Of a DNA stretch of 64,000 nt, positions 20,709 to 47,064 are shown piece after piece; within the stretch, counting starts at the first letter, position 1; each line of letters begins with the position of its first letter. The translations under genes and the position numbers were made by a program. The stretch covers positions 192,001 through 256,000 of the forward strand of contig CBDCRI010000001.1 in the NCBI GenBank assembly GCA_965220965.1. Reading direction: 5' to 3'. The notes under the pieces were generated by a model. That model was not told where the DNA came from. It saw only the letters and a list, made by a program, of their open reading frames with translations, and ran no database searches. This DNA comes from Candidatus Marinacidobacterium sp. Its GTDB lineage: Bacteria; Acidobacteriota; Vicinamibacteria; Marinacidobacterales; Marinacidobacteraceae.

Positions 20709-23417
20709 TCAGCCGCACTTGCTGTAGCCGCAGCCGCCGCAGACCTGGCAGCCCTCCTCGCGGCGCAGCTCGCCGCCGCATGCCGGGCACGCGCCGGGCA
20801 CCGGCGCCGCGGCGGGCCGGGCGGAGATCGGCTTGCCGAGCAGGTCCTCGGCGGCCCGCTCCAGGGCGTAGCCGACCTCGGAGATGATGGAGGGCACGTA
20901 GCGGTGCCCGCCGTCCACGGAGCGCCCCAGCGCCCCGCCGTCGGCGTCGCGCACCGACTTGAGGTCGCTGATCAGGTCGGCGATCTCGGCCAGGCCGTCG
21001 ATGCGCCGCAGCAGCGCCGACAGCGTCAGCGAGAACGAGGCCTGCCAGGCCGCGTGCTGGGTGTCCTTCGAGTTGATGAACACCTCGTGCAGGCGGTCGC
21101 CGAGCTTGCTCACGTGGACGTAGATCGGCATCGCGTCGGGCACGTTGACGTGCAGCCTGTAGGTCATCGACGGCAGCGCCAGCGGGCGGGTCTTCGCGGA
21201 CTGGGTGGCGCCCCGGCGGATCTCGTCGATCAGCTCGGGCAGCTCCGGCTCCGAGCGGGGCCGCGCCTCGACGGCCGCGGCGGCGTCGGCCTCCGCCGCC
21301 AGCTCCGGCGGCAGCGCGGGGGCGTCCGCGGCGGCCGGCGCCTGCGCGGGGCCCGCCACCGCCCACTCCACCAGCTCGCCCTCGATGCGCCCGGCGCCGT
21401 CCGGCCACGCGGCGCCCTCCGGCGCGGGCCGGGGGGCGTACTGGCCTTGGTTGAGCGCCTCGTGCAGCAGCGCCGCCCGCGTCGGCTCGCGCCGGTCGTG
21501 GGAGACCGACTCGCCGCCGCCGAACTCGCGCCAGGCGCCGTCGGCGGTGCGGAACCGGTAGCGGCGCCGCGCCATCTCGCCCTCGCGGGTGAGCACGCCG
21601 GCCCGCTGCGGGGTCGGCCGGTAGGTCGCGCAGCCCTTCAGGCCCTGCTCGTAGGCCAGCCGGTAGACGTCCTTGAACGCCTGGAACGGCATGTCCTCGG
21701 GCACGTTCACGGTCTTGGATATGCTGCTGTCGACAAAGCGCTGCACCGCCGCCTGCATCGCCACGTGCTCGGCCGGGGAGACGTCGTCGGCCGCCGTCCA
21801 GGCCGGCCCGCGCGGGAGCCCGTGGCGCTCCGCGTAGGCCTCCTCCAGCGAGCGCACGAGCACGGTGCGCTTGGCCTCCCCGGCGGCCACCAGGATGTTG
21901 CGCTCGGTCCGGTGCGCGAAGGTCGGCTCGATGCCGTTGGAGCAGTTGCCGGACACGAACGCCGTCGTGCCGGTCGGCGCCACCGTGGTCGCGTGCGACC
22001 AGCGCAGCCCGTGCTCGGCCGCGGCCGCCCGCCAGTCCCCGTCGAGCACGCCCTCGTCCACCAGGCGGCTGACGTAGGGCGAGGCGAGGTGCGCCTCGAG
22101 CACCGCCGGGTCCTCGAACACGGGCGCCCGGCCCTTCTCCCGGGCCAGCGCCACCGCCTCGCGCCAGGACTGCTCCGCCAGGACCGCCCCGACCCGCCTG
22201 GCGAAGGCCTGCGCGGGGTCCGACCCGTAGCGCAGGCCGAGCAGGTTGAGGGCGCTGCCGAGGCCCATGATGCCCATGCCGTGGCGGCGCTTGGCGCGCA
22301 GCTCCGCGTCCTGCTCGGGCAGCGGCAGCCGGGCGTCCTCCACCACGTTGTCGAGCATGCGCGAGAACGTCCGCGCCGCCCGGGCGAAGCCCTCCCAGTC
22401 GAACGCGGCGCCCTCCGTCAGGCCGTCCGTCACGTGGTCGGTGAGCCGGATGGCCCCCAGCAGGCAGGCGCCGTGCGGCGGCAGCGGCTGCTCCCCGCAC
22501 GGGTTGGTCGCCCAGATCTCCTCGACCGAGCGCAGCGGGTTCATGGCGTTGATGCGGTCGATGAACAGCACGCCGGGCTCGGCGCTGTCGTAGGTCAGGC
22601 GCATGATCCGGTCCCACAGGTCGCGCGCCGGCAGGCGCTTGTGGATGCGGCACAGGTAGCGCCCCTCGGCGTCGCGCTCGTACTCCGCGTCGGGCCCCGG
22701 CCGCTGCCAGCGCGCCCAAGCCGACTCGCCCTCGGGCGGGCGCGGCTCGCCGGCCCGGACCGGGTACATGAGGCGGTGCTCGCCGTCGGCGGCGACCGCC
22801 GCCATGAACTCGTCGCCCACCAGCACCGAGAGGTTGAAGTTGGTCAGCCGCCCGGCCCTGGCCTTGGCCTCGATGTAGTCCTCCACGTCCGGGTGGCGCA
22901 CGTCAAGCGTGCCCATCTGGGCGCCGCGGCGTCCGCCCGCCGAGCTGACGGTGGCGCAGGCGGCGTCGAAGGTGTCCATGAACGGCAGGACGCCGCCGGT
23001 GGCGGCGCCGACGCCGGCGACCAGGGCGCCGCGGGGGCGCAGGGTCGAGAAGCAGTAGCCGATGCCGCAGCCCTTGGCGAGCGTCTCCATGGCCTCGCCG
23101 ACCGCCCGCGCGATGCCCGCCATCGAGTCCTCCACCGTGCGCGACACCGTGCAGTTGATGGCCGAGGCGTTGCGCCCGTCGCGGCCCATGTTGGCCAGGA
23201 TGCGCCCGCCGGGCCGGGCGCCGCCCTCGAGCAGCGCCCACAGGAACTCGCGCTCCCTCGCCCGGCGGGCCTTGGCCGGGCCGCCGTCCAGCTTGGCCAG
23301 CGCCTTGGCGACGCGCTCCGCCACGTCCTCCCAGCACGCCTCCCCGGGCGCGCCGTACTTGTCCAGCAGGGTGTCGAGCATCGGGTCCGCAAGCGGTGCG
23401 GCGGCGGCGTTGAGCAT
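20709..23417 (-). CDS. nrdJ: class II (B12-dependent) ribonucleotide reductase with C-terminal Zn ribbon
   Basis: PGGRILAN, NCTV, GRRGAQM, EPGVLFID, ATNPCGEQPL, CLLG, APTGT, GIEP, SISKTVN, CPACG...CQVCGGCGYSKC. No nrdB nearby. Confidence 0.92.
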   Translation of the reverse strand: MLNAAAAPLADPMLDTLLDKYGAPGEACWEDVAERVAKALAKLDGGPAKARRAREREFLWALLEGGARPGGRILANMGRDGRNASAINCTVSRTVEDSMAGIARAVGEAMETLAKGCGIGYCFSTLRPRGALVAGVGAATGGVLPFMDTFDAACATVSSAGGRRGAQMGTLDVRHPDVEDYIEAKARAGRLTNFNLSVLVGDEFMAAVAADGEHRLMYPVRAGEPRPPEGESAWARWQRPGPDAEYERDAEGRYLCRIHKRLPARDLWDRIMRLTYDSAEPGVLFIDRINAMNPLRSVEEIWATNPCGEQPLPPHGACLLGAIRLTDHVTDGLTEGAAFDWEGFARAARTFSRMLDNVVEDARLPLPEQDAELRAKRRHGMGIMGLGSALNLLGLRYGSDPAQAFARRVGAVLAEQSWREAVALAREKGRAPVFEDPAVLEAHLASPYVSRLVDEGVLDGDWRAAAAEHGLRWSHATTVAPTGTTAFVSGNCSNGIEPTFAHRTERNILVAAGEAKRTVLVRSLEEAYAERHGLPRGPAWTAADDVSPAEHVAMQAAVQRFVDSSISKTVNVPEDMPFQAFKDVYRLAYEQGLKGCATYRPTPQRAGVLTREGEMARRRYRFRTADGAWREFGGGESVSHDRREPTRAALLHEALNQGQYAPRPAPEGAAWPDGAGRIEGELVEWAVAGPAQAPAAADAPALPPELAAEADAAAAVEARPRSEPELPELIDEIRRGATQSAKTRPLALPSMTYRLHVNVPDAMPIYVHVSKLGDRLHEVFINSKDTQHAAWQASFSLTLSALLRRIDGLAEIADLISDLKSVRDADGGALGRSVDGGHRYVPSIISEVGYALERAAEDLLGKPISARPAAAPVPGACPACGGELRREEGCQVCGGCGYSKCG

Positions 23418-23581
23418 GGTCCCTCCTCGTTGGCACAGGTCCGGCGCAGCGGGCGCCATGCAGGCATTGTAGCGACGGCGCGGGGTTTCGCGCCCCGGCC
23501 CGCGCGTTCGCGCCGCCTCAACAGCCGCATCGCGCCCCGCCTTCCTCGCGCCTGCCCCCGGCGATATACTCCCCATCCACG

Positions 23582-30706: not shown

Positions 30707-31417
30707 ATGCCAAAAACGGCAGGAGGATCGTCGATGGGCTCCAATCGGCCTACCGGCAAGCAGGAGGGCGGAAGCGGCCAGCAAGCGGAGCCGTCCGAAT
30801 CGCGTCGCCGGATGCAAGCGTGGATTGAGGCGGCTGCTGAGCGCCCTTTGATGGCGTTTTTCAAGGTTCTGGCCGCAGCGTCCTTTGTGTTCTGGGGAGT
30901 GGTCGCCTACGAGGAGCTCTGGGCGCCGCGCTGGATGCTCATGCAGGACGGCTCCGGCGGTGAGTTCCTCGCCCTGCGCCAGCCGCACCGTTGCGAGCTG
31001 CCGGAAGCGGCCATCGAACAGAAGCGCTGGGGGATGCTCTTCGCCGACTTCGGCGCCAGCCTTGCCTATTTTGGCGAGGCGCAATGGCGGGAGGGAGGGG
31101 ACCGGATCGGCCGCATCAGCCGAGTGGCCGCCGACCAAGGCCACCTCTGGCTGGCCACCTGGTGGGATCCCCGCGAGGGGCGGGCGGCCTCCGGCCTCTT
31201 CCAGCCCAGCGACTGGACAGTGCCCGGCCCCGCTCCCGTCGCATTGCTCGGCAGCGGGACGGGCGCGGCGGGCGAAGGGTCCGCCGAGGATGTAGAGCGC
31301 CTGCGCGCCCACCAAGCGGAGACGCTCCGCATCGGCCGGCAGGCCGTCCAGCCGCCGGTTTCCTGCGAAGGGGCGCTTCGCCTTGCGGCGCGGCTGCGGG
31401 ACCTGCCCGGTCCGTAG
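30707..31417 (+). CDS. hypothetical membrane-anchored protein
   Basis: TM segment VLAAASFVFWGVVAY; ends LPGP; start uncertain. Confidence 0.6.
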   Translation: MPKTAGGSSMGSNRPTGKQEGGSGQQAEPSESRRRMQAWIEAAAERPLMAFFKVLAAASFVFWGVVAYEELWAPRWMLMQDGSGGEFLALRQPHRCELPEAAIEQKRWGMLFADFGASLAYFGEAQWREGGDRIGRISRVAADQGHLWLATWWDPREGRAASGLFQPSDWTVPGPAPVALLGSGTGAAGEGSAEDVERLRAHQAETLRIGRQAVQPPVSCEGALRLAARLRDLPGP

Positions 31418-31551
31418 GCCGGGGCGCAACGCGGGCCGTCGGCCGCGGACGGCCGTTCCGACCCATGGGGGCGCCCGCCCCCCGCCCCTCGCCCGACCTT
31501 GGTTTATGGTATAATACAGGTAACACCAAAGGCGGCCGCCAAGGAGGGCCA

Positions 31552-31767
31552 ATGGGCGTGAACGGGGCGACGGACAGGCAGGTGCGCTACGCCATGCGCC
31601 TGCTGGCGGAGGCGGGCTACTCCACGAGATACATGAATGCCAAGTTCAAGGATCTCGGCGCCACCATGCGGGAGCGCAGCGGCAGCGTCGAGGACTGGGT
31701 GGCCGGCATGAACCGGCAGGAGGCCTCGGCCCTGATCGAGAGGCTTCTGGCGCAGGAGCCGCGATGA
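31552..31767 (+). CDS. small protein with ATxRQxxY...EASxLI motif
   Basis: AAGGAGG RBS, TGGTATAAT at 31507; motif shared with 60927-61367. Confidence 0.75.
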   Translation: MGVNGATDRQVRYAMRLLAEAGYSTRYMNAKFKDLGATMRERSGSVEDWVAGMNRQEASALIERLLAQEPR

Positions 31768-32144
31768 AGTCCTTCGCCTTCATCGACCGTAAGGGCGGCT
31801 TCCTCTTGGGCCATGCGGAGGCCGAGAGCCCGGAGATCGGCGCGCTGGTGCTGATGCGGGACATCGATGGGGACCGCGGGCAAACGGCGCAGGCCGTGGC
31901 GGACGTGCGCCTCGCGCGCGGAAAGGACGCCTTCGACGTCTACGAGGTGCCGCGCGGCCTGGAACTCCCCGACGCCCAGGCTGACGCGGAGGCCTCGATG
32001 GCCATCATGGGCGGCCGCTATCTCGGCATCGTGGTCGTCCACACCCCGAGCGCCCCGGAGGACACGGACCTTCCCGGCAAGACCCTGGACGTGTTGAGGC
32101 GGGAGCTTCGGTCCCCGCCGGATCCGGGCGCGCCGGGTCCATGA
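31764..32144 (+). CDS. hypothetical protein
   Basis: ATGA coupling to the previous gene; ends PDPGAPGP. Confidence 0.75.
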   Translation: MKSFAFIDRKGGFLLGHAEAESPEIGALVLMRDIDGDRGQTAQAVADVRLARGKDAFDVYEVPRGLELPDAQADAEASMAIMGGRYLGIVVVHTPSAPEDTDLPGKTLDVLRRELRSPPDPGAPGP

Positions 32145-32308
32145 CGGACGCCGGGCATTTGCGGGCGCTGCCGGCGGACGCCCGGCAGCGCTGCCAAGGC
32201 GACGTGGGGGGGCGCTGCGCCCTCCGGCTTGAGAACTTTCCCGAATCGATCAATGCTTGAAGCCCGCCGTCCGGTTCGGGCGGGCTGAAAGCGCACAAGG
32301 AGGCCAAG

Positions 32309-34306
32309 ATGCCCAACCATCGAGCAATGACCTTTCCCGCCCTGCTTGCCCTGGCCCTGCTTGCCGCAGGCTGCGGCGGCGGAGGGGGCAGCGGCGGCAC
32401 CGCCCCCGTCGTCGGGGGCGGCGGCCCGACGTTCGACGTCTCCGTCAGCGTGGCCGAGGCGCCGGGCCGGGCCGCGGGCGGGCCCGCCGAGCCCCCGCAG
32501 GCTGGCTTCGAGTTCACCGCCGCCTCGGACTCGGCCGGCGTGCCGAGGCTGGACTTCCAGGTCACGCCCGGCAGCCAGGGCGCGGCCTCCGGCGCGGTGC
32601 TCGCCGCCCCCGCGTCCGGGCAGCTCACGGTCGGCGAGCCGGTGGCCGTCGAGCTGCGCGTCGAGGACTGCCTCAAGGGCACCGCGGAGCCGGTGACGAC
32701 CGCCATCGGCGTCACCGTGGAGCACGCCGACCGGATCGAGACCGCCTGGACCTGGGAGTGCGACGAGGGCAACCCGCGCATCGTGCAGGTCGAGACCTAC
32801 CAAGGCCCGCTGGTGTCGCGGCTGCTGGTCGAGAGCGGCGACACGGACGGCCGCGGCGGCGTGGCCGTGCACCCGCAGGCGGGCCGCTTCGCGGTCGTCT
32901 CGGTGCACGTGGAGCACGACTCCGAGACCGTCCCGGAGGTCGCCGCCCGGCTGGCCGGGCGCGACGGCCAGGGCGACGGGCAGGGCCTTGACCCCATCGG
33001 CTCCGGGGCCGTCCGGCTGGAGACCCCGGACAGCTACGGGGAGTCCCCGTTCCGCTCGGAGCTGCTCTACCGGGTGCCCGCCGGGGACTACCGCGCGGGC
33101 CTTGACGTGCAGCTGGCCATCGACCCGGACGGGCGCCTCCGGGAGTCGGACGAGGGCGACAACGAGGTGGCGGTCCCGCTGCCCGACGAGGGCATCCACC
33201 GGACCCGCCCACTGGAGGTGGTGGTGGTGCCCGCGCACCGCGAGCCCGGACCCGGTGAGACCGCGCCGACGGGCGGGCTCATCCCTCCGGAGGGCGTGCC
33301 GGCGGATGCGCAAATACAGGCGGTGGTGAACGCGCACTGGCCCGCCCCGGCCGTGACCGTGCGCAACCACGAGAGCGCCCCGGATGAGCCGGAGCCCTTC
33401 GCGCTGCGCGGGGTCGACTACGGGGCCGGGCTGGGCGCCTGGGAGGACGCACTCGAGGAGCTCGTGATCTACCGTACGTCGCAGGCCACGGAGAGCCCGC
33501 ACGAGTTCTGGGTCGGCTACGTCGAGTGGCCCGAGGGATCGGAGCCGGCCAACGCGGCTTGCGGCCTCGGCTACAACCTCAGGGGCGACGGAGCGGTTTT
33601 GAGCCCGTATCGGGCAACCCTCATCAACGTGGGCTGCACCGACTTCGCTCTGGCCCACGAGCTGGGCCACAACCTCGGACTGAACCACGTCGACGCGGGC
33701 TGCGGCTCGACGCCGCCGCACCAGGAGTTTCCCCATGCGGACGGCGGCCTCGGTCCGAACCGGGTCTGGGACGCCCGCCGCAACGATGGCGCGGGCGGCT
33801 TCGTGCCCGGGGTGCCGGGAACCGACGCCGACGCCCCGAAGGACGTCATGAGCTACTGCGATGCTTTCTTCACCTCGGACCACAGCTACCGTGAGGCGCA
33901 GCGGCGGCGCATCAGCCTCGACGGGCTGCCGGAGGCGTCCGCCTACCGGAGCCTGGAGCCGCGGCCAGCGGCGTCCGGCGGGGGCGCGAGGTCCCTTCTG
34001 CTGGCCGGCCGGGTGGACGAGCGCGGGCGGTACAGCCTCACCCGCCACCGGCTGCTCGACAAGGCGCCGAAGCGCCCCGCCCCGGCCGGCGGGGGACGCC
34101 TCCGGCTGGTCGTCGAGGTGCCCGGACAGGGGCTGCGGCTCGAGCGTCCGCTGCTCCCCGCCTACCCCGCGCACGACCTCGACGGCGTGCACGACGGCAT
34201 CTGGGTGGACCGGGTGCCGGCCCCCGCCGGACGGGCGCCCACCTTGGTGACCATCGTGGACCCGGAGGGGCGCGCCCTGCTGCGGGAATGGCTGTTCGCG
34301 GAGTGA
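32309..34306 (+). CDS. lipoprotein zinc metallopeptidase (metzincin, M66-like) with CARDB-like domain
   Basis: Lipobox AAGC; IDPDGRLRESDEGDNE; HELGHNLGLNH; Met-turn DVMSYC. Confidence 0.88.
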   Translation: MPNHRAMTFPALLALALLAAGCGGGGGSGGTAPVVGGGGPTFDVSVSVAEAPGRAAGGPAEPPQAGFEFTAASDSAGVPRLDFQVTPGSQGAASGAVLAAPASGQLTVGEPVAVELRVEDCLKGTAEPVTTAIGVTVEHADRIETAWTWECDEGNPRIVQVETYQGPLVSRLLVESGDTDGRGGVAVHPQAGRFAVVSVHVEHDSETVPEVAARLAGRDGQGDGQGLDPIGSGAVRLETPDSYGESPFRSELLYRVPAGDYRAGLDVQLAIDPDGRLRESDEGDNEVAVPLPDEGIHRTRPLEVVVVPAHREPGPGETAPTGGLIPPEGVPADAQIQAVVNAHWPAPAVTVRNHESAPDEPEPFALRGVDYGAGLGAWEDALEELVIYRTSQATESPHEFWVGYVEWPEGSEPANAACGLGYNLRGDGAVLSPYRATLINVGCTDFALAHELGHNLGLNHVDAGCGSTPPHQEFPHADGGLGPNRVWDARRNDGAGGFVPGVPGTDADAPKDVMSYCDAFFTSDHSYREAQRRRISLDGLPEASAYRSLEPRPAASGGGARSLLLAGRVDERGRYSLTRHRLLDKAPKRPAPAGGGRLRLVVEVPGQGLRLERPLLPAYPAHDLDGVHDGIWVDRVPAPAGRAPTLVTIVDPEGRALLREWLFAE

Positions 34307-34423
34307 CCGGCGCTGCGTCGGAGCGGCGCCCGTCCCGCGGGAGCGCCCGCAGCGGGCCACGGTGGGGGTTCAAGCCCTGCCCGAACGCTACAATCCCTGC
34401 GAGGACCGCAAGAGGAGCGCGGC

Positions 34424-34921
34424 TTGGCCACCAGATGCCTGATCGGGATGGAGCAGCCGCGAGGCAGTGTCCTTTACGCCTACTGCCATTGTGACGGCTA
34501 TCCAGACAGCCTGGGCGTCGGGCGTGACCTGCTGAACGGCCTGCGGAGCCCGGAGGCGGTCGCGGCGATTGTCGCAGGCGGCAACATGATCGCGGTCGTC
34601 GACGGACTCCCCAAGCGGTTCGAGCCCTTCTCGCCGCCGGTCACGGTCGATGACGCGGACGCCTTCGTCGCGGAAATGGAGGGCCTCAACGCCGAGTACC
34701 TGTACCTCTTCACCCGGCAGGGCGACTGGCTGTGCTACGGCCACTGGCGGGGCGAGGGCGACGCATGGCGCGACCTCAGGGAGTACCGGGAGCGCATCGA
34801 GGCTGACGCGCGCTCGCCCTCCAGGCCGGGCGGGCCGGCCGGCGGCGGTCCGGGCCGCGCCGGGCCGAGTGCGGGCCAGCGGGGAACGGGCCGGCAAGGG
34901 CACGGGGCGCAGCGCCAATGA
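34424..34921 (+). CDS. conserved phage/plasmid hypothetical protein (YxHxDGYP family)
   Basis: MATRCLIG..YCHCDGYP..GVG..LL..EYLYLF; GAGGAG RBS, TTG start. Confidence 0.75.
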   Translation: MATRCLIGMEQPRGSVLYAYCHCDGYPDSLGVGRDLLNGLRSPEAVAAIVAGGNMIAVVDGLPKRFEPFSPPVTVDDADAFVAEMEGLNAEYLYLFTRQGDWLCYGHWRGEGDAWRDLREYRERIEADARSPSRPGGPAGGGPGRAGPSAGQRGTGRQGHGAQRQ

Positions 34922-35388
34922 CAGGGAACGGCAGGATCGACGGCATCCGCGTGCGCGTCACGCCGCGGCGCAGCTGGCGGCTGCAGCTCGTCAGGCTGTC
35001 GGGGGAGTGGCACGCCCTCGTGAAGGGCCGCAGCCAGGCTCCGGTCGAGGCCAAGGCCCGCACGGCCCAAGCCGCGCTGGAGCGCGCCTTGGGCGCCTGG
35101 GCCGACAGGCCCGAGGTGACGGCTGCCGCGCCAAGGTCGGCCGGAGCCTTGGCCTTCGAGTTGCCTGATGAGGACGGCGCCTGGCTCTGCCTGAGGCACC
35201 GGGGGATGGACGCCACGTGGTCCTGCGAGTTCGGCAGCGTGGCCCGCCGGCGAACCGTCACCGGGCACCGCTGCCCGGAGGACGCCATCGCCGCCGCGTC
35301 ACGGGCGTGGCCGGCGGCCATTGCGCCCCTGCGCCTCGGCGCCGGGCCGCCTCCCCCGCCAAGCCGGCCCGCGGCCGGCGGTCCCTGA
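34918..35388 (+). CDS. hypothetical protein
   Basis: ATGA coupling; ends PSRPAAGGP. Confidence 0.6.
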   Translation: MTGNGRIDGIRVRVTPRRSWRLQLVRLSGEWHALVKGRSQAPVEAKARTAQAALERALGAWADRPEVTAAAPRSAGALAFELPDEDGAWLCLRHRGMDATWSCEFGSVARRRTVTGHRCPEDAIAAASRAWPAAIAPLRLGAGPPPPPSRPAAGGP

Positions 35389-35407
35389 CGTCCCCGGGCG
35401 CCGCCCA

Positions 35408-36445
35408 ATGCCGGTCTCCATAGTCGTCGGCGGCCAGTTCGGCTCGGAGGGCAAGGGCAAGGTCGCCCACTGGCTCGCGGCCCGGCAGCAGGCGTGCCAC
35501 GCCGTTCGCGTCGGCGGCCCCAACTCGGGCCACACCGCGCTCTCCGAGGGCCGGCTGCGCGCGTTCCGCCAGCTCCCAACCTGCATCCTGCATGAGCCCG
35601 TGGTCGGCGTCATCCCCGCGGGGGCCTACGTGGACGAGGCGCTCCTGCTGTCGGAGGCGGAGGCCGCCGGCATCGACGAGTCCCGGCTGCTGATCCATCC
35701 CGATGCGGTCCTGCTCGACGAGTCCATGCGCGAGGAGGAGCGCCGGGCCGGCCTCGTCGAAGGGGTCGCCTCGACCGGACAGGGCGTCGGCGCGGCGCTC
35801 AGGCGGCGCGTCATGCGCATGCGCTCCGTCAGGTTCGCCCGCGACTCCGAGTCCTTGCGGCCATTCCTGCGGCCGGACCTGGGCGCGCGCCTGGCCGAGG
35901 CGCTCGACCGCGGCGGCCGCATCGTCATCGAGGGCACGCAGGGGTTCGGGCTGTCGCTGCTGCACGGCGGCCACTACCCGTTCGCCACCAGCCGCGACAC
36001 CACCGCCGCGGGCATGCTCTCGGAGGCCGGCCTCAGCCCCCGCGACGTGGACTGCGTGTCGCTGGTGATCCGCGCCCTCCCCATCCGCGTGCAGGGCAAC
36101 TCCGGCCCCCTCCCCCGCGAGACCTCCTGGGCCGAGGTGCGGCGCCGCAGCGGGGCGGGCGTCGACCTGGCCGAGACGACCACCGCCACCGGCCGGCGGC
36201 GGCGGGTGGCGCGCTTCGACCCCCGCGTCGTGCGCCGCGCCATCGCCGTCAACCGCCCGAGCCAGCTGGTGCTCAACCACGTGGACCTCATCGACTGCGC
36301 GGCGCACGGCAAGTCCCGCCTCACCGCGCGCGCGGGCGCCGCGGTGGCGGACATCGAAAGCTCGCTCGGCGCGAGGGTCGACTACGCGGGCACCGGCCCG
36401 GGCAGCCTCATCAGCCGCCCTGCGGGCGGCTGGGCCTGCGGCTAG
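35408..36445 (+). CDS. short adenylosuccinate-synthetase paralog, PurZ/PurZ0-like
   Basis: GGQFGSEGKGK, GGPNSGHT, STGQGVG, EGTQG, YPFATSRD, PIRVQGNSGPL, TTATGRRRRV, NHVD, GTGP; 345 aa. Confidence 0.88.
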   Translation: MPVSIVVGGQFGSEGKGKVAHWLAARQQACHAVRVGGPNSGHTALSEGRLRAFRQLPTCILHEPVVGVIPAGAYVDEALLLSEAEAAGIDESRLLIHPDAVLLDESMREEERRAGLVEGVASTGQGVGAALRRRVMRMRSVRFARDSESLRPFLRPDLGARLAEALDRGGRIVIEGTQGFGLSLLHGGHYPFATSRDTTAAGMLSEAGLSPRDVDCVSLVIRALPIRVQGNSGPLPRETSWAEVRRRSGAGVDLAETTTATGRRRRVARFDPRVVRRAIAVNRPSQLVLNHVDLIDCAAHGKSRLTARAGAAVADIESSLGARVDYAGTGPGSLISRPAGGWACG

Positions 36446-36533
36446 CCGGGAGCGGCGGGGAGCCGGGGCGCCCATCGCCCCGGATCGCGGTCCGGCCGGG
36501 CGGCCGGCTCCCGGGGAGCGCCAAGCGCCGGCA

Positions 36534-36971
36534 TCAGCCGCCGGCCCCGACCGGCGCCTCGAGCCAAGCCTTGAGCGCGGCCCACTGCCGCTCGTCGGCG
36601 AGCCTGCGGCGGACCAGCGCGTCGAAGAGGTCGGGAACGCACTGGCCGCGCAGGTGGCCGTCGAGCAGCCTGCGGCTGTCGCGGTCGTCGCCGAGGGCCG
36701 GGAGGTAGCCGGCCGCCGCGGCGCGGCGGGCGTCGTCGAGCCGCTCCGGCGCCTCCGCCAGCCAGCAGTCGAGGTCCTCGCAGGCCGCCAGGACGCGGTC
36801 CGCCTTGCGCCGGTAGGCGGCGAGGAAGGCGTTGGACGCCCGCGACACGCGCCGCCGCTCCGCCATGGGCAGCCCGCCCAGCGCGCCGTCGAGGGTCCGG
36901 TCGAGGGCGGCGAGCGCTATGAGCCTCGGATGGCGCAGGCGGTCCTGCAAGGGCGTGCTGGTCGGGGTCAA
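36534..36971 (-). CDS. hypothetical protein
   Basis: TTG start with GAGG RBS and upstream TGGCATAAT. Confidence 0.55.
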   Translation of the reverse strand: MTPTSTPLQDRLRHPRLIALAALDRTLDGALGGLPMAERRRVSRASNAFLAAYRRKADRVLAACEDLDCWLAEAPERLDDARRAAAAGYLPALGDDRDSRRLLDGHLRGQCVPDLFDALVRRRLADERQWAALKAWLEAPVGAGG

Positions 36972-37028
36972 ACGTCGGCCTCGATGGCGGTCCCGGGCAT
37001 TATGCCACGCCCGCCGCGCCCTTGCGCC

Positions 37029-37985
37029 TCACGGGCCCGGCGCGGCCGCCCCCCGGCCCGGCGAGGCCTTGGGCGAGGGATCCCACATGTGCCTGGCGGC
37101 GCCCATCCACTCCGCAACCGCGCACGCCTCGAAGGCGGCCGCCATGCTGGGCAGCCCCCGCCCGATCGCCTGCCGGCCGCCGACGTCCCGCTCCAGCCAG
37201 GCGTGCCAGCCGCCGTCGGCCTGGCCCACGCGGTAGAGGCCGTGCGCCCACAGACCGTCGCCGGCCGCCGCCCAGTGCCAGGCCCGGAGGGCGGCCGCCG
37301 GGTCGCCACGGTAGGTCCAGCGCAGGCCGCTCTCCATTGCCTGCGCCCGCCAGGCCGCGCCGAGCCGTCCGGCGCGGACCAGGTTCTCGAAGTGGGACGA
37401 GCGCAGCGTCCGCCGCAGCCGCAGGCTGCCGGCCTTGCCCGGCCAGCCGCGCTCGCTGAAGTAGCCGGCCGGCCCCTTGAGGGCGGCCAGCCCGACCGCG
37501 GCGTGCCACTGCGCCCGCGCCAGCGCCTTGGCCGCCTGGGGCCGGAAGGCGTGCTCGGAACCGTAGTGGGCGTCCATGCGGGCGGCGACCTCGTCGAGGC
37601 CCAGCGCGGAGAGCGCGCGCGGCCGGCCGGCCGCGCCGTGCCCCATCAGGTCCATGGCCGCGTCCATCAGGCGGCACAGCATGGCGGCCGACTCCTCCAG
37701 CCGCCGGAAGTCGTAGAGCGGGCGCTCGCCGGGGCGCTCGATGACGTGGCGGGACGCGTCCACGGCGCCCGCCATGTGCGGGGTGCCGGCGGGGTCGTCG
37801 CGGCGGCGGGGCGCGGCCCCGGAGCGAATCCCGGCCAGCGCCAGCGTTCGCGGGTCGAGCCGCCACTCGCCGCCGGCCAGGCCCTGGGCGAACCGGTCCG
37901 CCAGCCCGCGGCTGCGGGCGCCGCAGGCGGCGGCCTCGGCCCCGGCGAGGGCCGCGGCGGCCCGTTCGGCCTCGCGGGGACTCAC
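37029..37985 (-). CDS. class II RNR-scaffold-derived protein, no catalytic core
   Basis: Colinear matches to NrdJ blocks (see findings); paralog of 38758-39753; ends APGP. Confidence 0.75.
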   Translation of the reverse strand: MSPREAERAAAALAGAEAAACGARSRGLADRFAQGLAGGEWRLDPRTLALAGIRSGAAPRRRDDPAGTPHMAGAVDASRHVIERPGERPLYDFRRLEESAAMLCRLMDAAMDLMGHGAAGRPRALSALGLDEVAARMDAHYGSEHAFRPQAAKALARAQWHAAVGLAALKGPAGYFSERGWPGKAGSLRLRRTLRSSHFENLVRAGRLGAAWRAQAMESGLRWTYRGDPAAALRAWHWAAAGDGLWAHGLYRVGQADGGWHAWLERDVGGRQAIGRGLPSMAAAFEACAVAEWMGAARHMWDPSPKASPGRGAAAPGP

Positions 37986-38053
37986 GGACGGCCTCCCGCC
38001 GCCGCCCTGCCGTTGCGTCCCATTTCGGCGCCGCTGGCCGCTGCGTGCGAAGG

Positions 38054-38623
38054 CTAGGGGCCTGGCGGGGCGGACGGGGCGGCGCGCCCGCTCGCCGCCG
38101 CGCCGGCATCGGCCCCGGGGCCAGGCCGCAACTGGCGCTCCGCGCGGCAGCCCCCTTGCTTGAAATGGGCATCGTCCGGCTGGTGGATGTCCTCATCCGA
38201 GCTGGTGACGACGGCGGCCGCGCCCCCGGCGGTGTCGAGCACCACGACGACATCCCCCCAGGGCTGCTTGATGGCCTCGTGGAACGCGGCCAGGGCGTCG
38301 TCCTTGTCCCTGTGGGCGGACAGGAAGTCCCCGACCGTGGCCAGGTCGAAGTCCAGCGCGTAGAGGATGGTCTGGCTGATGACGCGGACCTGGTAGCGGT
38401 GGTAGCGGTCCGGAACGCCTTTCCAGAGCGTCCTGCCGTTGAAGCGGTCGAGAACGAGGATGGTGCAGTCGGGATGGGCGCGGACGCGGCGCTCGGCCTC
38501 CTCCAGGGCGGCGCGCCTGTCGTTGGTGAGGGACGGGGGGTCGAACAGGTCGATCCCGCCCTCGTCGACGGTGCGGATGGCGTATCGGGGCGCCAGTTTC
38601 TGGCGCGGGGCGTTGGCGTTCAT
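38054..38623 (-). CDS. hypothetical protein
   Basis: GAGGAG RBS, ATG 38623; ends APSAPPGP. Confidence 0.7.
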   Translation of the reverse strand: MNANAPRQKLAPRYAIRTVDEGGIDLFDPPSLTNDRRAALEEAERRVRAHPDCTILVLDRFNGRTLWKGVPDRYHRYQVRVISQTILYALDFDLATVGDFLSAHRDKDDALAAFHEAIKQPWGDVVVVLDTAGGAAAVVTSSDEDIHQPDDAHFKQGGCRAERQLRPGPGADAGAAASGRAAPSAPPGP

Positions 38624-38757
38624 GCTTTCTCCTCGGTTGAACTGGGCTTGCGCGGCGCTTCGCCGCACTCCCCCTCCCTGCCGCGCAGCGTCGCGGCCGC
38701 CCTGGCGGCGGCGCGGGCCAGCGGCCCGCGCCCCGATGGCCCCGCCGGCACCGGCCG

Positions 38758-39753
38758 CTAGGGGCTTGGGGAGGCGGACCGAACCGGGCGCCCGGCCGCC
38801 GCAGGCGAGGCGGGCGCGGGGGCGCGGTCGACGCTGAAGTGGTGCTCCAGCCGGCAGCCCCAAGCGTGCTCCGCGCACGCCGCGTAGGCCTCGCCGCGGC
38901 TGTCGTTGGCAAGGCCGACCGACCAGCGGTAGTCGGAGAGGTCGGACTTGCGCGAGGCGTGCCACCGCCCGTCCTCCAGCCAGACGCGGTAGGCGCCGTG
39001 CGCCCAGGCCGCCTCGCCGACCCGGGACCACTCCCAGTACCAGGGGGCGGGCGCCGGGTCGCCGAAGTGCGTCCAGCGCAGCCCGTGGGCGGCGGCGCGC
39101 CGCCGCCAGCGCTCGTCGAGCTCTCCGAACTTGATGGCGGTGGCGATGCGCTTCGAGTGCAGGGTGCGCATGAGGGCGTTGCGGTCGCGCGCGAAGTAGG
39201 GGGCGGGTCCCTTGGCGCGGGCCAGCGCCACCGACGCGTTCCATTGCCCGCGCGCCAAGGCCCGCAGGATTCCGAAGTCGAGCCGGTTCGTCCGTTCCAG
39301 CGGCAGGCCCGACTCGAGGGGGAGGCTGTCGATCTGGCGCAGCTCGCGGCGGCAGCCCGCAGCGGCCGCGCCCACCATGGCCATGGCCGCGTCCATCAGC
39401 CGGCTCAGCATGGCGGCGGACTCCTCCAGGCCGCGGAAGTCGTAGCGCTCGCTCGCCGCGAAGCCGGGGACGGCGTGGCGGCCGAGGTCCACCCGGCCCA
39501 CCATCGGGTCGGCCCCCTCCGGCTCGCGTCCGGTGCGCGCCGGCACGAGGCCCTGCCCGAGCCCGACCGCGGCCCGGGTCGCCACGTCAAGCCCCCATTC
39601 GCCGCTCAGCAGGCCTTCTGCGAAGCGGCCGGCAAGCCGCCTGCGCCCAAAGGGGCCGTTCAGGCCGTCGGCCTCGGCGAGCGCCAGCGCTGCGCTCCGC
39701 ACGACGCGCTCCTCCGGCATTTCGGCCCTCATTGTCTCCGCGTTCGCTCCCAT
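38758..39753 (-). CDS. class II RNR-scaffold-derived protein, no catalytic core
   Basis: YDFRGLEESAAMLSRLMDAAM, SVALARAKGPAPYF, WRRRAAAHGLRWTH; AAGGAG RBS; ends SASPSP. Confidence 0.75.
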   Translation of the reverse strand: MGANAETMRAEMPEERVVRSAALALAEADGLNGPFGRRRLAGRFAEGLLSGEWGLDVATRAAVGLGQGLVPARTGREPEGADPMVGRVDLGRHAVPGFAASERYDFRGLEESAAMLSRLMDAAMAMVGAAAAGCRRELRQIDSLPLESGLPLERTNRLDFGILRALARGQWNASVALARAKGPAPYFARDRNALMRTLHSKRIATAIKFGELDERWRRRAAAHGLRWTHFGDPAPAPWYWEWSRVGEAAWAHGAYRVWLEDGRWHASRKSDLSDYRWSVGLANDSRGEAYAACAEHAWGCRLEHHFSVDRAPAPASPAAAGRPVRSASPSP

Positions 39754-39883
39754 GCCTGCTCCTTGACCGCTTCGGGGGTGTGCACGCCATTAAAGCGGCC
39801 CGCGCCCGAATGGCCCCCGGGCGCGCGGCCCAAGGCCGCCGCGAATCCTAGAATGGGCTTGGCAAACCGACGGCGGGGAGGCC

Positions 39884-40318
39884 GTGATGCCCGACTTCGT
39901 GGAGCCCAACAGCCGGCAGGTGGGCGGCCGTCACTACAAGACGGTCGACTACGAGCCTTGGGACTTCGTCGCCGACTGCGGCCTGGACTACTTCGCCGGC
40001 ACCGCCGTGAAGTACCTGGTCCGGCGCAAGGGCGACCGCGCCGAGGACCTGGAGAAGGCCGTGCACTTCCTGGAGAAGCGCGCCGCGGTGGCCGCCGCGC
40101 GGCCCGGGCGCTGGGGCCGGCCTCCCGAGCGGGACGGCGAGCCCGCCAGCGGGCGCCTCGGCCGCCTGTGCCGCGCCCACGGCGCCAGCGGGGCGGTGCG
40201 CAAGGCGCTGGAGCGCCTGCTCGCGGGCCAGTGGCTCGCCGCCGCCGCCGCCGCACGGGAGGAGATCGCGGCGCTCCCCGGCTCCCAGGCTGCGCCCGGC
40301 CGCGGACCGCGGCCCTAG
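39884..40318 (+). CDS. DUF3310-family protein
   Basis: QVGGRHYK, EPWDFV, GTAVKYLVR..KG..EDLEKA. Confidence 0.85.
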   Translation: MMPDFVEPNSRQVGGRHYKTVDYEPWDFVADCGLDYFAGTAVKYLVRRKGDRAEDLEKAVHFLEKRAAVAAARPGRWGRPPERDGEPASGRLGRLCRAHGASGAVRKALERLLAGQWLAAAAAAREEIAALPGSQAAPGRGPRP

Positions 40319-40345
40319 GACGAACCAAGACGAGGAGACGCTTCC

Positions 40346-40996
40346 ATGGCCCTATCCCTTGCACTGCACACGCCGCATCCCCTGCGCGACGAGGCCGCCT
40401 TGGAGCTGCTGCTCGGCGGCACGGTCAGCTGGAAGGCCGCGGCGGCGGCCACGAAGGCCGTCCCGCCGGCGGTGGTGTTCCCCGACTTCTCCGACCTGGC
40501 CTACACGGGCGAACGGCTCCAGGGGGCCAAGCTCGCCGTGGCCGTGGCCCGGCGCGTGGCCAAGCGGCCCCCGCCAGGGGAGCGGCCGTGGAGCCAGGTG
40601 TCGGCGGAGATGCCGTTCGTGGACATCCGGGTGTACATGATCCCGCTGCGCGGGACGCCGGCCCCAAGCGTGGGGGTGGACATCGACGACTCCTCGGGCC
40701 TGATGGAGCACGTCAGCGCGTACCTCGCGGAGGTCTGCGCCGGCCTGCTCCTGGAGACGGGCAGCCGGGAGGCGGTGGCCTTCGACTGGCAGTCCGAGGA
40801 CGACCAAGGCCAAGCGTTCGCCAGCGCCGAGGGCGTCGTCCACTCCCAGCCCCCCGCCTGGCGCCGAGAGGCGCTGCGCCTCCACCAAGCGGGAGGCATC
40901 GAGGCCGTTCGCGCCTTCGCGAACGCCGCTGGCGCGCCCCCGCTCCGGCCCGTGGGCGCCGCGGGGCCGGAACGCTCGCTGGGGCCGTCCCCTTAG
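40346..40996 (+). CDS. hypothetical protein
   Basis: GAGGAG RBS; ends RSLGPSP. Confidence 0.7.
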   Translation: MALSLALHTPHPLRDEAALELLLGGTVSWKAAAAATKAVPPAVVFPDFSDLAYTGERLQGAKLAVAVARRVAKRPPPGERPWSQVSAEMPFVDIRVYMIPLRGTPAPSVGVDIDDSSGLMEHVSAYLAEVCAGLLLETGSREAVAFDWQSEDDQGQAFASAEGVVHSQPPAWRREALRLHQAGGIEAVRAFANAAGAPPLRPVGAAGPERSLGPSP

Positions 40997-41137
40997 CCCG
41001 TGGTCAGGCTCCCGCACAGGCCCGTTGAGGCTCCCTCCCCCAGCCCGACTTAAGGGCCGCCCCGCCGGCCGCGCCGCCTTCGGCGTGCCATAATGCGACC
41101 ATGTCCTCCCGCTTCGGCAAGGCGCCGCGGCCCGCCA

Positions 41138-42499
41138 GTGGCGGCCGCTGAGCGCGAGCTCACGCAACCGGCGGACCGCCTGTTCAGGCGCGCCGAGCCC
41201 GTGCTCAGCAGGCACTTCGGCCCCAGCGCCTGCGCCGTCGGCGGAGGCGCGGCGCTCGCTGCCCTCTGGGGCCACCGGCGCTGCGCGCGCATCGACCTCT
41301 TCATCGACGGTTCGGCGTACCGGGCCGTGGCCATGGACGTCCGGCGGCGGGCCGCGCTCGAGGACGGCCTGCTGCGGGCCCTTCGCCCGGTGCGCCTGGA
41401 CGTGGCGTGCGGACGCCTCAAGGCGCTGCTCGCCGGCGGCGAGGTCACCGTTTCCACGTCCCCGGCGCCGATCGCGGCGGACCGCCCCTTCCCGCACCGG
41501 GTGGCGGGAACATGGACCGCCCTCGAGCCGCCATCCCTTGCCCTGGCCCGCAAGATCCACGGGCGAATGCTCGACAGGGGCCTGTTCCTGGCCCGCGACC
41601 TGCACGACGCCGCGGCGGCCGCCTGCCTTGACCGGGCAGCGCTGGCCGCCGCCCTGGATGCCTTGACGGCAGGGGAGCGGGCGGCGCTTGGCGACGAGCT
41701 CGACCGGCTTGCGGATGCCCAAGGGGGCGCCGCACGGCTCTTGCCCCCCTTCAGGGCGGCGCTGGCCGGGGACTGGCCGGCCGCGGCCGCCCTGGGCGCC
41801 CCCGCCGCAGGCCGCTGGCCCTCGCCCGCGGACGTCCCCGACCTCCGCGCGGTCCGCGCCGCCTACGCCGCCGGCCCGCCCGGCGAGGCGTTCGCCGGCG
41901 TGCCGACCCGGGAGGAGCGCGTTGCGGAGAGCGAGCGCGCGCTGCTTGGCCTGTGCGTCGCGGGCGGGCGGGATCCCGCCGCCGCGCGCCTGGGGCCGCA
42001 CGGCGCCCTGCTCGGCGGCCCCGGCCAGGCAGGGCGGTGCCGCTCGCCGGCGTCCCGGCTGGCCGAGGACTACGCCCCGGTCCGCCTGGCGCCCCCCGCC
42101 TGGTTCTCGCACGACCGGCCGGCGGAGGGCGCCCAAGACGCTGGGCGGGGCATCCTCGCGATGCTGGTCGCCGCCCACATGGCCGGCGTGCCACGGGCGG
42201 ACCGGCCGACGCCCGACGCCTTGCGGCGGGCGTTCGACGCCGACCCGCCGAGTCCCCTCGAGCGGTTCTGGCTGCATGAGGTGCTGGCCTGCGGGACCGT
42301 GAGGGAGCTGCGCGCCCTCATCCAGGAGACGGGCATGCCGCTGGGCACGTTCGTCCGGGGGCTGCACGCCGCCGGCGTGCGGCGCCACGACGTGGCGGAC
42401 TGGATCAACCAGTTCGCGGTCGAGCCGGCGGTGGGAGAGCCCCGCCTAGCCCTCTGGAGGGCGCCGAAGGGCAAGGGGCGGGCCCCCGCCCCCGGCTAG
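41138..42499 (+). CDS. AbiEii-like nucleotidyltransferase fused to an unknown C-terminal domain
   Basis: VGGGAALAALWGHRRCARIDLF, K..GR..RDLHD; start inferred. Confidence 0.65.
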   Translation: MAAAERELTQPADRLFRRAEPVLSRHFGPSACAVGGGAALAALWGHRRCARIDLFIDGSAYRAVAMDVRRRAALEDGLLRALRPVRLDVACGRLKALLAGGEVTVSTSPAPIAADRPFPHRVAGTWTALEPPSLALARKIHGRMLDRGLFLARDLHDAAAAACLDRAALAAALDALTAGERAALGDELDRLADAQGGAARLLPPFRAALAGDWPAAAALGAPAAGRWPSPADVPDLRAVRAAYAAGPPGEAFAGVPTREERVAESERALLGLCVAGGRDPAAARLGPHGALLGGPGQAGRCRSPASRLAEDYAPVRLAPPAWFSHDRPAEGAQDAGRGILAMLVAAHMAGVPRADRPTPDALRRAFDADPPSPLERFWLHEVLACGTVRELRALIQETGMPLGTFVRGLHAAGVRRHDVADWINQFAVEPAVGEPRLALWRAPKGKGRAPAPG

Positions 42500-45523: not shown

Positions 45524-45764
45524 CGTTGCAGTTGGACTGCTCGGGGTTGCAGTTGGACGAGCCCGAGCGTTGCGCTTTGACTGGAGGCGTTGCAGTTGGA
45601 CTGACACCGTTGCACTTGGACTGTCCGCGTTGCAGTTCGACTGGTTCCGTTGCAGTTGGACTAATTCCGTTGCAGTTCGACTGACACCGTTGCAGTTGGA
45701 CTGATCCCGTTGCAGTTGGACTGGATTCGTTGCAGTTGGACTGACCGCGTCGCAGTTCGAGCGG
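45524..45764 (+). repeat. iteron array of the probable replication origin
   Basis: 12 copies of consensus CGTTGCAGTTGGACTG plus 4 variable nt; ten copies at exact 20-bp period (45569-45749); lies between an AT-rich region and the repA stop. Confidence 0.88.
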
Positions 45765-45810
45765 TTCCCAGGCGGATCGACGCGCCCGCTCAGCGGGGCG
45801 TTGGTCAGGG

Positions 45811-47064
45811 CTAGGCGTCCCGGCCCGCCGCCGGCCCCGGAGCGTCGATCAGGACGCTCGCCGGGCGCATGGGCACGGGCGGTGGGGAGTGGCGCAGCTG
45901 CAGGCGGTCGCCGGCGATCTCGACGTCGAACCCGGAGTGCACGCGGGCGATGGCGGTGAGGTCCGAGGCCAGCCGGTGCTTGAACATCCGCAACCCGGCC
46001 ACGTCCGGGGCGAAGATCGGGTGCAGCGCGGACAGCCTGATGGGCAACGGGCGCCCCTTCGGCACCCGGGGCAGGCGGTAGGACAGCCACGAGTACAGGT
46101 CCATGCGGCGCGGGCTGCGGGTCAGCTTGCGCAGGTGCGCGAGGTCCACGGGCACGGGATGCTCGGAAACGGCTTCGTAGAAGCGCTCGGACAGGCGAAC
46201 GCCGACCTCAACCGGGCCGTCGTCCGCGCCGAGGCCTTGGCCCCACCAGGACAGCCTGTCCGCCACCGCAAGCAGGGCGAAGCTCTGCTCCACACGGCCC
46301 TCCTGCCCGAGGGCGAACCGGAAGCTCGCCGTGGCGACGTTCTCGGTCTCCCGCGCCAAGGTCCGGGCGTTGTGCGCGGTGTAGGTGACCCCGACGAAGT
46401 TCCGCACGTAGTCGTGCACGGTGCGTCCGAGCGGCACCTCCCTGGTCCGTTTCATCAGCGCGTGCCGCGTGATGGTCGGCAGGATCAGGCGGGCCATCGA
46501 GCCGGACGGCACGGCGCAGTCACGGGCGGGCCTGCCGGCCGAGGCGGGCAGCGTGCCCGCCACCACGTCCAGCCGCGCGAGGCCGTGGTTTGCCGACCAG
46601 AGGCGCTGACCGGCGGGCAGCTGGCGCTGGGGCAGGAAGCACTGCATGAGGATGCCGTGGGTGAAGCCTATGTCGCGCCCGAGCAGCGCCTCGTCCGCCT
46701 CCCGGACCGCGGCGGCGTCCCGCTGGTCCGGCGCCGGCACGCGCGCGGAGGCCCGCCTTCTGGCCTCGGCCAGCAGATCGTGCCGGGCGTCGGCGGGGAA
46801 CGCCCGCCTGGCCTGGTCCTCGTGGTCGTTGGTGACCCGATCCGTGTCCCCGGCCTTCAGGAGCGCGTGGAACAGCCGGCCCGGCGTGCCGAGGGAGTCG
46901 TCGGCCAGCGCCTTCATCGCGAGGGCCAGGAAGTCCAGGACGGCCTTCTCGCCCACGTCCCAGAAGCCTCGGCGGACCGCCTCAAGGTAGAGCGCGCCGA
47001 GGCGCTGGGGATCAGTCAGGTCGCCACGCTCGATGTGGCCAAGGTCGACGCCCGGCCGCGTCAT
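45811..47064 (-). CDS. repA: plasmid replication initiator (RepA_C-type) with N-terminal extension
   Basis: IGFTHGILMQCFLP, VPSGSMARLIL, LSERFYE..EHPVPVD, SPRRMDLYSWLSYRL, F..RL; adjacent to iterons. Confidence 0.85.
   Translation of the reverse strand: MTRPGVDLGHIERGDLTDPQRLGALYLEAVRRGFWDVGEKAVLDFLALAMKALADDSLGTPGRLFHALLKAGDTDRVTNDHEDQARRAFPADARHDLLAEARRRASARVPAPDQRDAAAVREADEALLGRDIGFTHGILMQCFLPQRQLPAGQRLWSANHGLARLDVVAGTLPASAGRPARDCAVPSGSMARLILPTITRHALMKRTREVPLGRTVHDYVRNFVGVTYTAHNARTLARETENVATASFRFALGQEGRVEQSFALLAVADRLSWWGQGLGADDGPVEVGVRLSERFYEAVSEHPVPVDLAHLRKLTRSPRRMDLYSWLSYRLPRVPKGRPLPIRLSALHPIFAPDVAGLRMFKHRLASDLTAIARVHSGFDVEIAGDRLQLRHSPPPVPMRPASVLIDAPGPAAGRDA

Follow-up and report, generated by a model that had tools for sequence, protein, structure and literature searches.

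PurZ-type enzymes catalyse the committed step to the Z base (2-aminoadenine). Passages of PMC12884076 treat such enzymes as a phage trait with a few archaeal relatives. Here we describe a gene of this type on a plasmid of Candidatus Marinacidobacterium sp. (assembly GCA_965220965.1), situated in a stretch of 64,000 nucleotides, hereafter the window, that covers positions 192001-256000 of the smaller of the assembly's two contigs. The gene encodes a short paralogue of adenylosuccinate synthetase (PurA). Our preferred reading, to which we give a probability of about 0.55, is that its product is an intact and horizontally acquired member of the PurZ group, probably active and predicted to be a GTP-dependent guanine-nucleotide-aspartate ligase, that lies apart from the operon typical of its family. 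Also described are a large cellular clade that has the PurZ signature residues, its own conserved operon and a neighbourhood suggestive of restriction and defence islands, and a stand-alone plasmid copy from that clade.

Among described enzymes, the PurZ0 proteins of Gordonia phage Archimedes (7VF6, assigned to PurZ0 in PMC12884076) and Arthrobacter phage Wayne resemble the plasmid enzyme in being short and PurA-type, in having Ser at the Asp13 position of PurA (GSExKG), PIRV followed by an N-S-G insertion and a retained Asp in the guanine-specifying motif, and in falling into the same strongly supported clade. However, identity between them and the plasmid enzyme is only ~37–40% over ~70% of the length (tblastn), they sit in phages, and they have DutZ, DmtZ and DpoZ beside the gene (passages of PMC12884076; Archimedes locus), whereas the replicon studied here has no dUTPase or PolA. 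The PurZ proteins of phiVC8, S-2L and PMBT28-type phages also belong to the superfamily and the Ser clade and have the P-loop Ser, but their P-loop reads GSTGKG, the insertion after PIRV is longer, Asn replaces the guanine-specifying Asp (NFCN), which fits the use of ATP or dATP, and they are accompanied by DatZ together with MazZ or DUF550. The portion of PMC8342488 on S-2L PurZ reports that it takes ATP or dATP and that S23, the equivalent Ser, lies 3.7 Å from the 2-amino group of 2'-deoxyguanosine monophosphate (dGMP) and is among the residues unique to PurZ. In section 24 of PMC12884076 the donors preferred by PurZ0 and PurZ are given as 'ATP and GTP, respectively', a sentence that seems reversed when compared with the relevant part of PMC8342488, with the preprint 10.1101/2025.10.22.683976 and with the Asp/Asn state of the base-specifying motif. 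Lastly, the short archaeal-type PurA (Pyrococcus horikoshii 2D7U/5K7X; NF003295) is similar to the plasmid enzyme in length and fold class, but it retains PTRV along with the catalytic Asp and makes up a clade of its own.

The enzyme and its predicted chemistry

The gene is as follows:
35408..36445, + strand: short adenylosuccinate-synthetase paralogue of the PurZ group (Ser-type), 345 aa, with Ser13 in GSEGKGK, Ile226 in PIRV and Asp293 in NHVD

Its open frame spans 35321-36445 (+), and the ATG at 35408 gives a protein of 345 residues whose N-terminus, MPVSIVVGGQFGSEGKGKV, is the same as in close relatives. The frame is coding, since its G+C content at third codon positions (GC3) is 0.93-1.00 from ~35400 to 36400; the value for the whole gene, 0.96, is in line with the host (window GC 64-79%). 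The protein matches Pfam Adenylsucc_synt (PF00709, E=1.1e-41) and, in PHROGs, the phage family phrog_1211, '2-aminooxy adenylosuccinate synthetase' (E=1.2e-67), and it retains all 91 columns that are invariant in 34 family members. Judged by its sequence, the gene is thus an intact, Ser-type member of the PurA superfamily. In a sequence search of the PDB the top match was the P. horikoshii PurA (1.6e-48), with 7VF6 at 2.1e-45, and the PurZ proteins of phiVC8 (6FM1, 2.2e-26) and S-2L (7ODX, 4.8e-23) were much weaker matches.

The motifs were compared in a structure-anchored alignment in which the plasmid enzyme was set beside PurAs (two bacterial, two archaeal), PurZ0 and PurZ proteins (two of each), a ToyG-like enzyme, a Bacillus phage homologue and five further cellular relatives of Ser or Gly type, among them a kinase-fused plasmid enzyme. 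All four motifs are present: GSEGKGK stands at the P-loop Asp13 position of PurA, STGQG at the IMP-loop, PIRVQGNSGP at xTRV and NHVD at the guanine-specifying [ST]K[LI]D. GSEGKGK aligns to GDEGKGK of PurA, with GSEAKG in PurZ0; PIRVQGNSGP aligns to [PT]TRVG-xGP of PurA; and NHVD aligns to TKLD of bacterial PurA and to SMAD or TMLD of PurZ0. A one-residue deletion ahead of GPN[SA]GHT is common to the plasmid enzyme and all Ser-type sequences aligned; with G-S-E-x-K-G, PIRV and the N-S-G insertion, it is one of the derived characters that link the enzyme to PurZ0. The motifs are not a product of chance, as they recur in the best 120 relatives (the plasmid enzyme included): G-S-E-G-K-G lies within the first 60 residues in 119 of the 120, PIRV is present in at least 111, and NHVD in 106. 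A preliminary description of this DNA, made from its letters alone, had drawn attention to these four motifs, to the Asp within NHVD and to the short length of the protein, and the alignment, taken together with the S-2L findings in PMC8342488, demonstrates that this was read correctly.

The Asp retained in NHVD suggests a GTP donor. By analogy with its relatives, the enzyme would accept dGMP, and possibly GMP as well, activate the 6-oxo group of this guanine nucleotide at the expense of GTP and condense the nucleotide with aspartate; the expected product would be N6-succino-2-amino-(deoxy)adenylate. The adenylosuccinate lyase PurB encoded on the chromosome could then turn that compound into the monophosphate of the Z (deoxy)nucleoside, (d)ZMP.

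Phylogenetic position

Two trees place the plasmid enzyme in one clade with both phage groups. The first (78 rows, LG+C20 PMSF, quick search, SH-aLRT only, bacterial PurA as outgroup) has a single Ser/Gly-type clade with a support of 99 that unites 53 cellular sequences, five PurZ, four PurZ0 and one Bacillus phage sequence, while ten archaeal Asp-type PurAs form a clade of their own (99) and the ToyG-like enzyme lies outside. Within it, the plasmid enzyme belongs to a group of five rows (99) with proteobacterial loci from metagenome-assembled genomes (L006, L007, L008 and L012). An independent 44-row IQ-TREE analysis (LG+F+G4, SH-aLRT/UFBoot) recovered the Ser clade at 99.7/100 and the plasmid enzyme with L006, L007 and L012 at 98.8/100. 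In neither tree does the plasmid enzyme fall in the PurZ or the PurZ0 subgroup. The preliminary description had proposed a PurZ/PurZ0-type identity and named a phylogeny with PurA, PurZ and PurZ0 as a way of checking it; the trees uphold that identity, with the Asp kept as in PurZ0 and the protein set apart from the Asp-type archaeal PurAs.

Some PurA-like enzymes have other tasks, and the protein could in principle be one that acts on IMP, dIMP, XMP or a modified purine, in the manner of ToyG and unrelated to Z. We consider this rather unlikely. Short PurA paralogues do serve secondary metabolism, a homologue on a Rhizobium leguminosarum plasmid lies between folE and purB and near queC/D/E, nitrile hydratase and phosphoribosyltransferase genes, and the model for archaeal PurA scores the plasmid enzyme above the model for PurZ. 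Yet Asp (GDEAKG) and PTRV are both conserved in the ToyG-like enzyme, whose branch lies outside the Ser clade, whereas the Ser, PIRV and N-S-G insertion of the plasmid enzyme are PurZ0-type, and a family scan of the window found no purine-antibiotic genes (folE, queC/D/E, purB, nitrile hydratase) near it. An identity as a ToyG-type 7-deazapurine antibiotic gene was rejected on these grounds. The R. leguminosarum locus (plasmid p3, L002:11375-19721) is a toyocamycin/sangivamycin-like 7-deazapurine cluster composed of folE, an Asp-type short PurA gene, purB, queE, an IMPDH-like gene, nitrile hydratase, queC, a HAD hydrolase, a phosphoribosyltransferase and queD.

A cellular family with its own operon

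The Ser-type enzymes of cellular genomes, a family for which we found no published name, constitute the plasmid enzyme's own clade, with L006, L007 and L012 as its nearest rows. Among 8000 scored candidates from a large protein database, 5572 proteins matched at E<=1e-20, and the best 119 non-self matches have 55–66% identity to the plasmid enzyme and a length of ~356 aa, with many on contigs of 1–7 Mb. At least 481 species genomes encode a Ser-type relative (pattern and tblastn, one genome per species), a scan that was seeded with the Ser motif and therefore cannot gauge how often the Ser is retained. They belong to Proteobacteria, Cyanobacteria, Bacteroidota, Acidobacteriota, Nitrospirota, Firmicutes, Actinomycetota, Verrucomicrobiota and Chloroflexota, with one Archaeoglobaceae archaeon, and four of them have canonical PurA and a Ser/Gly copy together. 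Matches were also found in 47 plasmid records, the best being a Sinorhizobium medicae plasmid (47% identity, GSEGKGK and PIRV) in which the PurZ-like gene and a gene for a dCTP-deaminase-like (Dcd-like) protein form a two-gene unit. In IMG/VR, 195 viral contigs have relatives, at no more than 49% identity. The 80 viral loci kept from these for a motif scan contain GSEGKG in 64 open reading frames (ORFs), GSEAKG in 11 and GGEGKG in one; an N-terminal extension resembling a kinase is seen in seven of the 80, and the bacterial operon is complete in none. The preliminary description had spoken of such enzymes as described from phages, and on this point it needs revision: by motif and by tree, PurZ-type enzymes are not confined to phages and a large cellular clade exists. 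The GenBank record of phiVC8 carries the note 'similar to Solibacter usitatus', so that a bacterial homologue had already been noticed at annotation.

The family has a conserved operon, which was defined by clustering of ORFs around 80 genome loci and Pfam searches with representatives. A fusion protein of ~690 aa, in which an RNase-H-like exonuclease domain (RNase_H_2, PF13482), DUF429 and a P-loop kinase are joined, is encoded in 68 of the 80 loci, and its gene usually stops within ~10 bp of the PurZ-like start. The Dcd-like protein (~345 aa, membrane-anchored, dCTP-deaminase/dUTPase-like, domain PF22769, hydrophobic coiled C-terminus) is encoded in 66 loci and a deoxynucleoside kinase (PF01712) in 45. 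In 12 loci, chiefly from Acidobacteriota and Verrucomicrobiota, there is an AAA ATPase that is IetA-like in PADLOC (1e-14), and in 11 of them it replaces the Dcd-like protein. Either the Dcd-like or the AAA protein is thus encoded in 77 of the 80 loci, the exceptions being L008 and the short contigs L021 and L071. The similarity of the Dcd-like protein to dCTP deaminases in the PDB is weak (1e-4), and phage DutZ was rejected as its homologue (no significant similarity, E=0.47). The four-part operon and its AAA variant were seen in loci L006-L085, for example at L045:5791-10719. Unlike these 77 members, the plasmid enzyme has no Dcd-like or AAA gene at its flank.

A kinase-fused Ser-type PurA-like enzyme from the Lmac_3114 neighbourhood (PMC12522546) is likewise plasmid-borne, in the Ser clade and equipped with GSEGKG and PIRV, but it has an N-terminal P-loop kinase and a downstream FFW-motif ART-like protein, neither of which occurs in the window. 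We found this form on plasmids of Burkholderia thailandensis (L086:6431-8774) and Agrobacterium rubi (L087:6449-8741), followed by an FFW-motif protein of ~216 aa that matches the DarT-like Lmac_3114 ART family. A passage of PMC12522546 places the Lmac_3114 family beside adenylosuccinate-synthetase genes in 60% of cases.

The neighbours of the family operon were compared with PADLOC models (ORFs >=300 aa within 2.5 kb of the operon, E<=1e-20). A first set of 35 loci gave 18 matches among 86 ORFs, spread over 15 loci, and a second set of 36 loci gave 12 among 66 ORFs, spread over 11; pooled, this is 30 of 152 ORFs and 26 of 70 distinct loci. They include type I, IIG and IV restriction, PglW, RmrA, PLD-helicase, HmaC, HEC-07, dGTPase, PD-Lambda-2_B and SoFic, and among them are generic matches to Cas12f-type models (probably TnpB), a PolA-like reverse-transcriptase model, RmuC and RecQ-like helicases. 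Since no random-gene baseline stands behind the counts, they are suggestive of a frequent position of the family operon within restriction/defence islands and not a demonstration of it. An identity of the PurZ-like gene as part of a known defence system was rejected, PADLOC having no match for it or for its Dcd-like partner. Our literature search, which did not extend to the Science papers of 2021 or the PurZ0 paper of 2023 that may bear on novelty, returned no paper on cellular PurZ-type operons.

Overall, the family seems to belong to a conflict system centred on nucleotides. Taken further, and put forward as a tentative possibility, Ser-type enzymes could be the core of a widespread and undescribed system of bacteria and archaea that converts guanine deoxynucleotides into 2-aminoadenine deoxynucleotides and from which phage PurZ0 and PurZ could have been captured, and the megaplasmid copy, no longer joined to that system, could supply Z nucleotides for replication of the plasmid by its own DnaE or alter the purine deoxynucleotide pool in another way. 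In such a system the exonuclease-DUF429-kinase fusion, the Dcd-like or AAA protein and the deoxynucleoside kinase would act with the PurZ-like enzyme in conflicts with phages or plasmids, and phage PurZ0 and PurZ would derive from the cellular pool and not directly from archaeal PurA. Should the cellular enzymes act on dGMP, bacteria themselves would be able to make Z nucleotides, the account of the origin of the phage pathway would change, and a new class of nucleotide-based conflict system might be at hand.

A narrower proposal, raised as anti-phage defence in the preliminary description, is that the enzyme serves defence, making dZ/Z nucleotides or draining dGMP during phage infection in an abortive or poisoning manner, and that the plasmid copy is still used in that way. 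Consistent with this are the defence neighbourhoods of the operon elsewhere (26 of 70 loci), the patchy spread of the family over many phyla, the union in one operon of an exonuclease, kinases and a dCTP-deaminase-like protein or, in the second type, an IetA-like partner, and the richness of the host plasmid in toxin-antitoxin modules, methylases and cas genes. We nevertheless regard it as unlikely for the copy studied here: the PurZ-like and Dcd-like proteins match no PADLOC model, the neighbour counts have the limits given above, and the window copy is without any partner and, as judged by family and PADLOC scans of the window, has no defence gene directly beside it.

The replicon and its host genome

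The assembly consists of contigs C1 (2,884,672 bp) and C2 (363,302 bp), and the window is C2:192001-256000. Outside the window, 200 of the 201 called ORFs of at least 120 aa on C2 were scanned, the one left out being an ORF that spans two stretches. The features of the window that bear on the replicon and on the immediate setting of the PurZ-like gene are:
34424..34921, + strand: upstream gene X, phage-type protein of 165 aa (phrog_1987, E=7e-16), possible operon partner
34918..35388, + strand: upstream gene Y, 156 aa, no family match
45811..47064, - strand: plasmid replication initiator with a RepA_C domain (PF04796, E=9e-18)
45524..45768, no strand: iteron array, about ten 20-bp units, each CGTTGCAGTTGGACTG plus 4 nt
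20709..23459, - strand: adenosylcobalamin-dependent (class II) ribonucleotide reductase, NrdJ (TIGR02504, 509.6 bits, cut-off 399.95)

The initiator gene and the iterons agree with the RepA/iteron replicon named in the preliminary description. C2 also has type IVB conjugation genes (DotI, DotH, DotD, DotM and TraI-type), a DnaE-type Pol III alpha (C2:47219-50551), an RNase-T-type (epsilon-like) exonuclease, two DnaB, an SSB and a second ribonucleotide reductase (C2:268178-270763). The earlier statement that no DNA polymerase was visible therefore stands for the window and not for the replicon. Five C5 methylases, one N6 methylase and one MT-A70 methylase are encoded outside the window, and for C2 as a whole the count is at least five for C5 methylases, two for N6 methylases and one for MT-A70, with a type II N6 methylase encoded at window 1378-3105. 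Together, the replication and methylase genes make an investment in DNA replication and modification evident. Four AbiEii, two HipA, one Fic and type I-E-like cas5/6/7 are further genes of C2, and no terminase, portal or capsid domain was found in the 252 C2 ORFs scanned.

The chromosome encodes canonical purA (C1:1754350-1755597, 545 bits) as well as PurB (ADSL_C). The PurZ-like gene is an extra paralogue and not the cell's PurA, and an identity as canonical PurA was rejected, given the Ser at the Asp13 position, the sub-threshold scores for TIGR00184 and NF003295 and the separate chromosomal purA. None of 60 sampled relatives (sharing the genus in two cases, the family in 25, the order in 27 and the class in six) carries the PurZ-like gene at E<=1e-30, for which horizontal acquisition is the best reading. 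For window 30000-44000 no synteny was found in 30 relatives, which gave short GC-rich matches only.

The families PolA, MazG and dUTPase had matches on C1 only and none on C2, and the DatZ of phiVC8 used as query had no match. As these genes are not on C2, the Z-genome kit is absent there apart from the PurZ-like enzyme, PurB being chromosomal. The preliminary description had reported no DatZ or MazZ and had proposed that the contig be searched for datZ, mazZ and dpoZ; its report proves correct for the entire replicon as far as the DatZ query and the MazG, dUTPase and PolA families extend (DUF550 and DmtZ were not searched for separately). An HD_4 protein of the window was rejected as a DatZ candidate, as the match was local (58 residues, E=0.002) and NCBIfam assigns the protein as SpoT/RelA-like.

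The partners of the family operon were sought with tblastn using all partner sequences and with four profile hidden Markov models on stop-to-stop ORFs. C2 had no match at E<=1, and the same searches of C1 gave weak or generic domain matches only, with no pseudogene remnants in the genome. The window copy is separated from all partners of the family operon. In our preferred reading the gene would have become detached from a nucleotide-processing operon and now stands behind X and Y on a 363-kb conjugative iteron megaplasmid.

Several observations weigh against that reading. The protein passes no curated equivalog threshold, since its scores lie below the cut-offs of the NCBIfam models for PurZ (NF038379, 211.1 bits, cut-off 300), archaeal-type PurA (NF003295, 258 bits, cut-off 368) and bacterial PurA (TIGR00184, 166 bits, cut-off 395.55), and the archaeal-type model outscores that for PurZ (258 vs 211 bits), although true archaeal PurAs reach 510-586 bits on it. 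The enzyme still has the TGRxRR Arg that in PurA makes contact with the 2'-OH of the ribose, and specificity for deoxynucleotides is therefore not predicted. Branching within the Ser clade differs between the two trees, as PurZ0 is nested in the cellular family in the first (91), whereas the second groups PurZ with PurZ0 (86.8/93) and makes this pair the sister group of the cellular sequences (71/88). The substrate predicted for the plasmid enzyme is extrapolated from phage relatives of ~30–40% identity. Finally, because the usual operon partners are missing from replicon and genome alike, the gene may be idle here.

The gene could also be a remnant without function, left behind by an operon that was disrupted. 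Beside the three of 80 comparison loci it is the only clear case without a Dcd-like or AAA partner, and the partners are absent from the entire genome. A relic is nevertheless very unlikely, as the frame is uninterrupted, 91 of 91 family-invariant columns are kept, GC3 (0.96) matches the host, and the gene is tightly packed behind two co-directional genes: the start of Y overlaps the stop of X, and 20 bp separate the end of Y from the PurZ-like start. Searches of the atlas and of families gave nothing usable on the function of X and Y beyond phrog_1987 for X. 

Least probable of all is the other inference of the preliminary description, a partial exchange of A for Z by which the plasmid's DNA would evade restriction once conjugation has taken place. 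Although the replicon is conjugative, encodes DnaE, SSB, two DnaB, an exonuclease of epsilon type, two ribonucleotide reductases and many methylases, and PurB is available from the chromosome, Z-substituted plasmid DNA is unsupported, as C2 has no DatZ, DutZ-type dUTPase, MazG-type dGTP pyrophosphatase or PolA-type DpoZ, dZTP in a shared cytoplasm would enter the chromosome too, base composition is unremarkable for the genome, and the assembly reads ordinary A.

Other genes of the window

The genes downstream of the PurZ-like gene are on the other strand and convergent with it. Three features on that side are:
37029..37985, - strand: protein resembling a ribonucleotide reductase fragment, paralogue of 38758-39753
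38758..39753, - strand: protein resembling a ribonucleotide reductase fragment, paralogue of 37029-37985
39884..40318, + strand: DUF3310 protein (marginal, 24.1 bits, cut-off 24)

The first two proteins are 41% identical to one another and have no family match. Across 170 aa they resemble the middle of NrdJ from the window (residues 328-489) at 29% identity, and on that similarity they look like diverged fragments of a ribonucleotide reductase. The preliminary description had listed such reductase-like proteins downstream, along with a class II ribonucleotide reductase, a DUF3310 protein and phosphoesterases, and all of these were found, the last as DHH/RecJ-like and HD proteins and the DUF3310 protein with only the marginal score given above.

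Two overlapping genes at 7706-8614 (-) and 6984-7718 (-) comprise an SspD/PAPS-reductase-like gene (PADLOC SspD, 9.5e-17) that overlaps the end of a SpoT-like HD_4 hydrolase gene. A metallopeptidase-like lipoprotein is encoded at window 32327-34306 (+), and a second copy of its gene, with 74% DNA identity, is present at C2:29082-30935.

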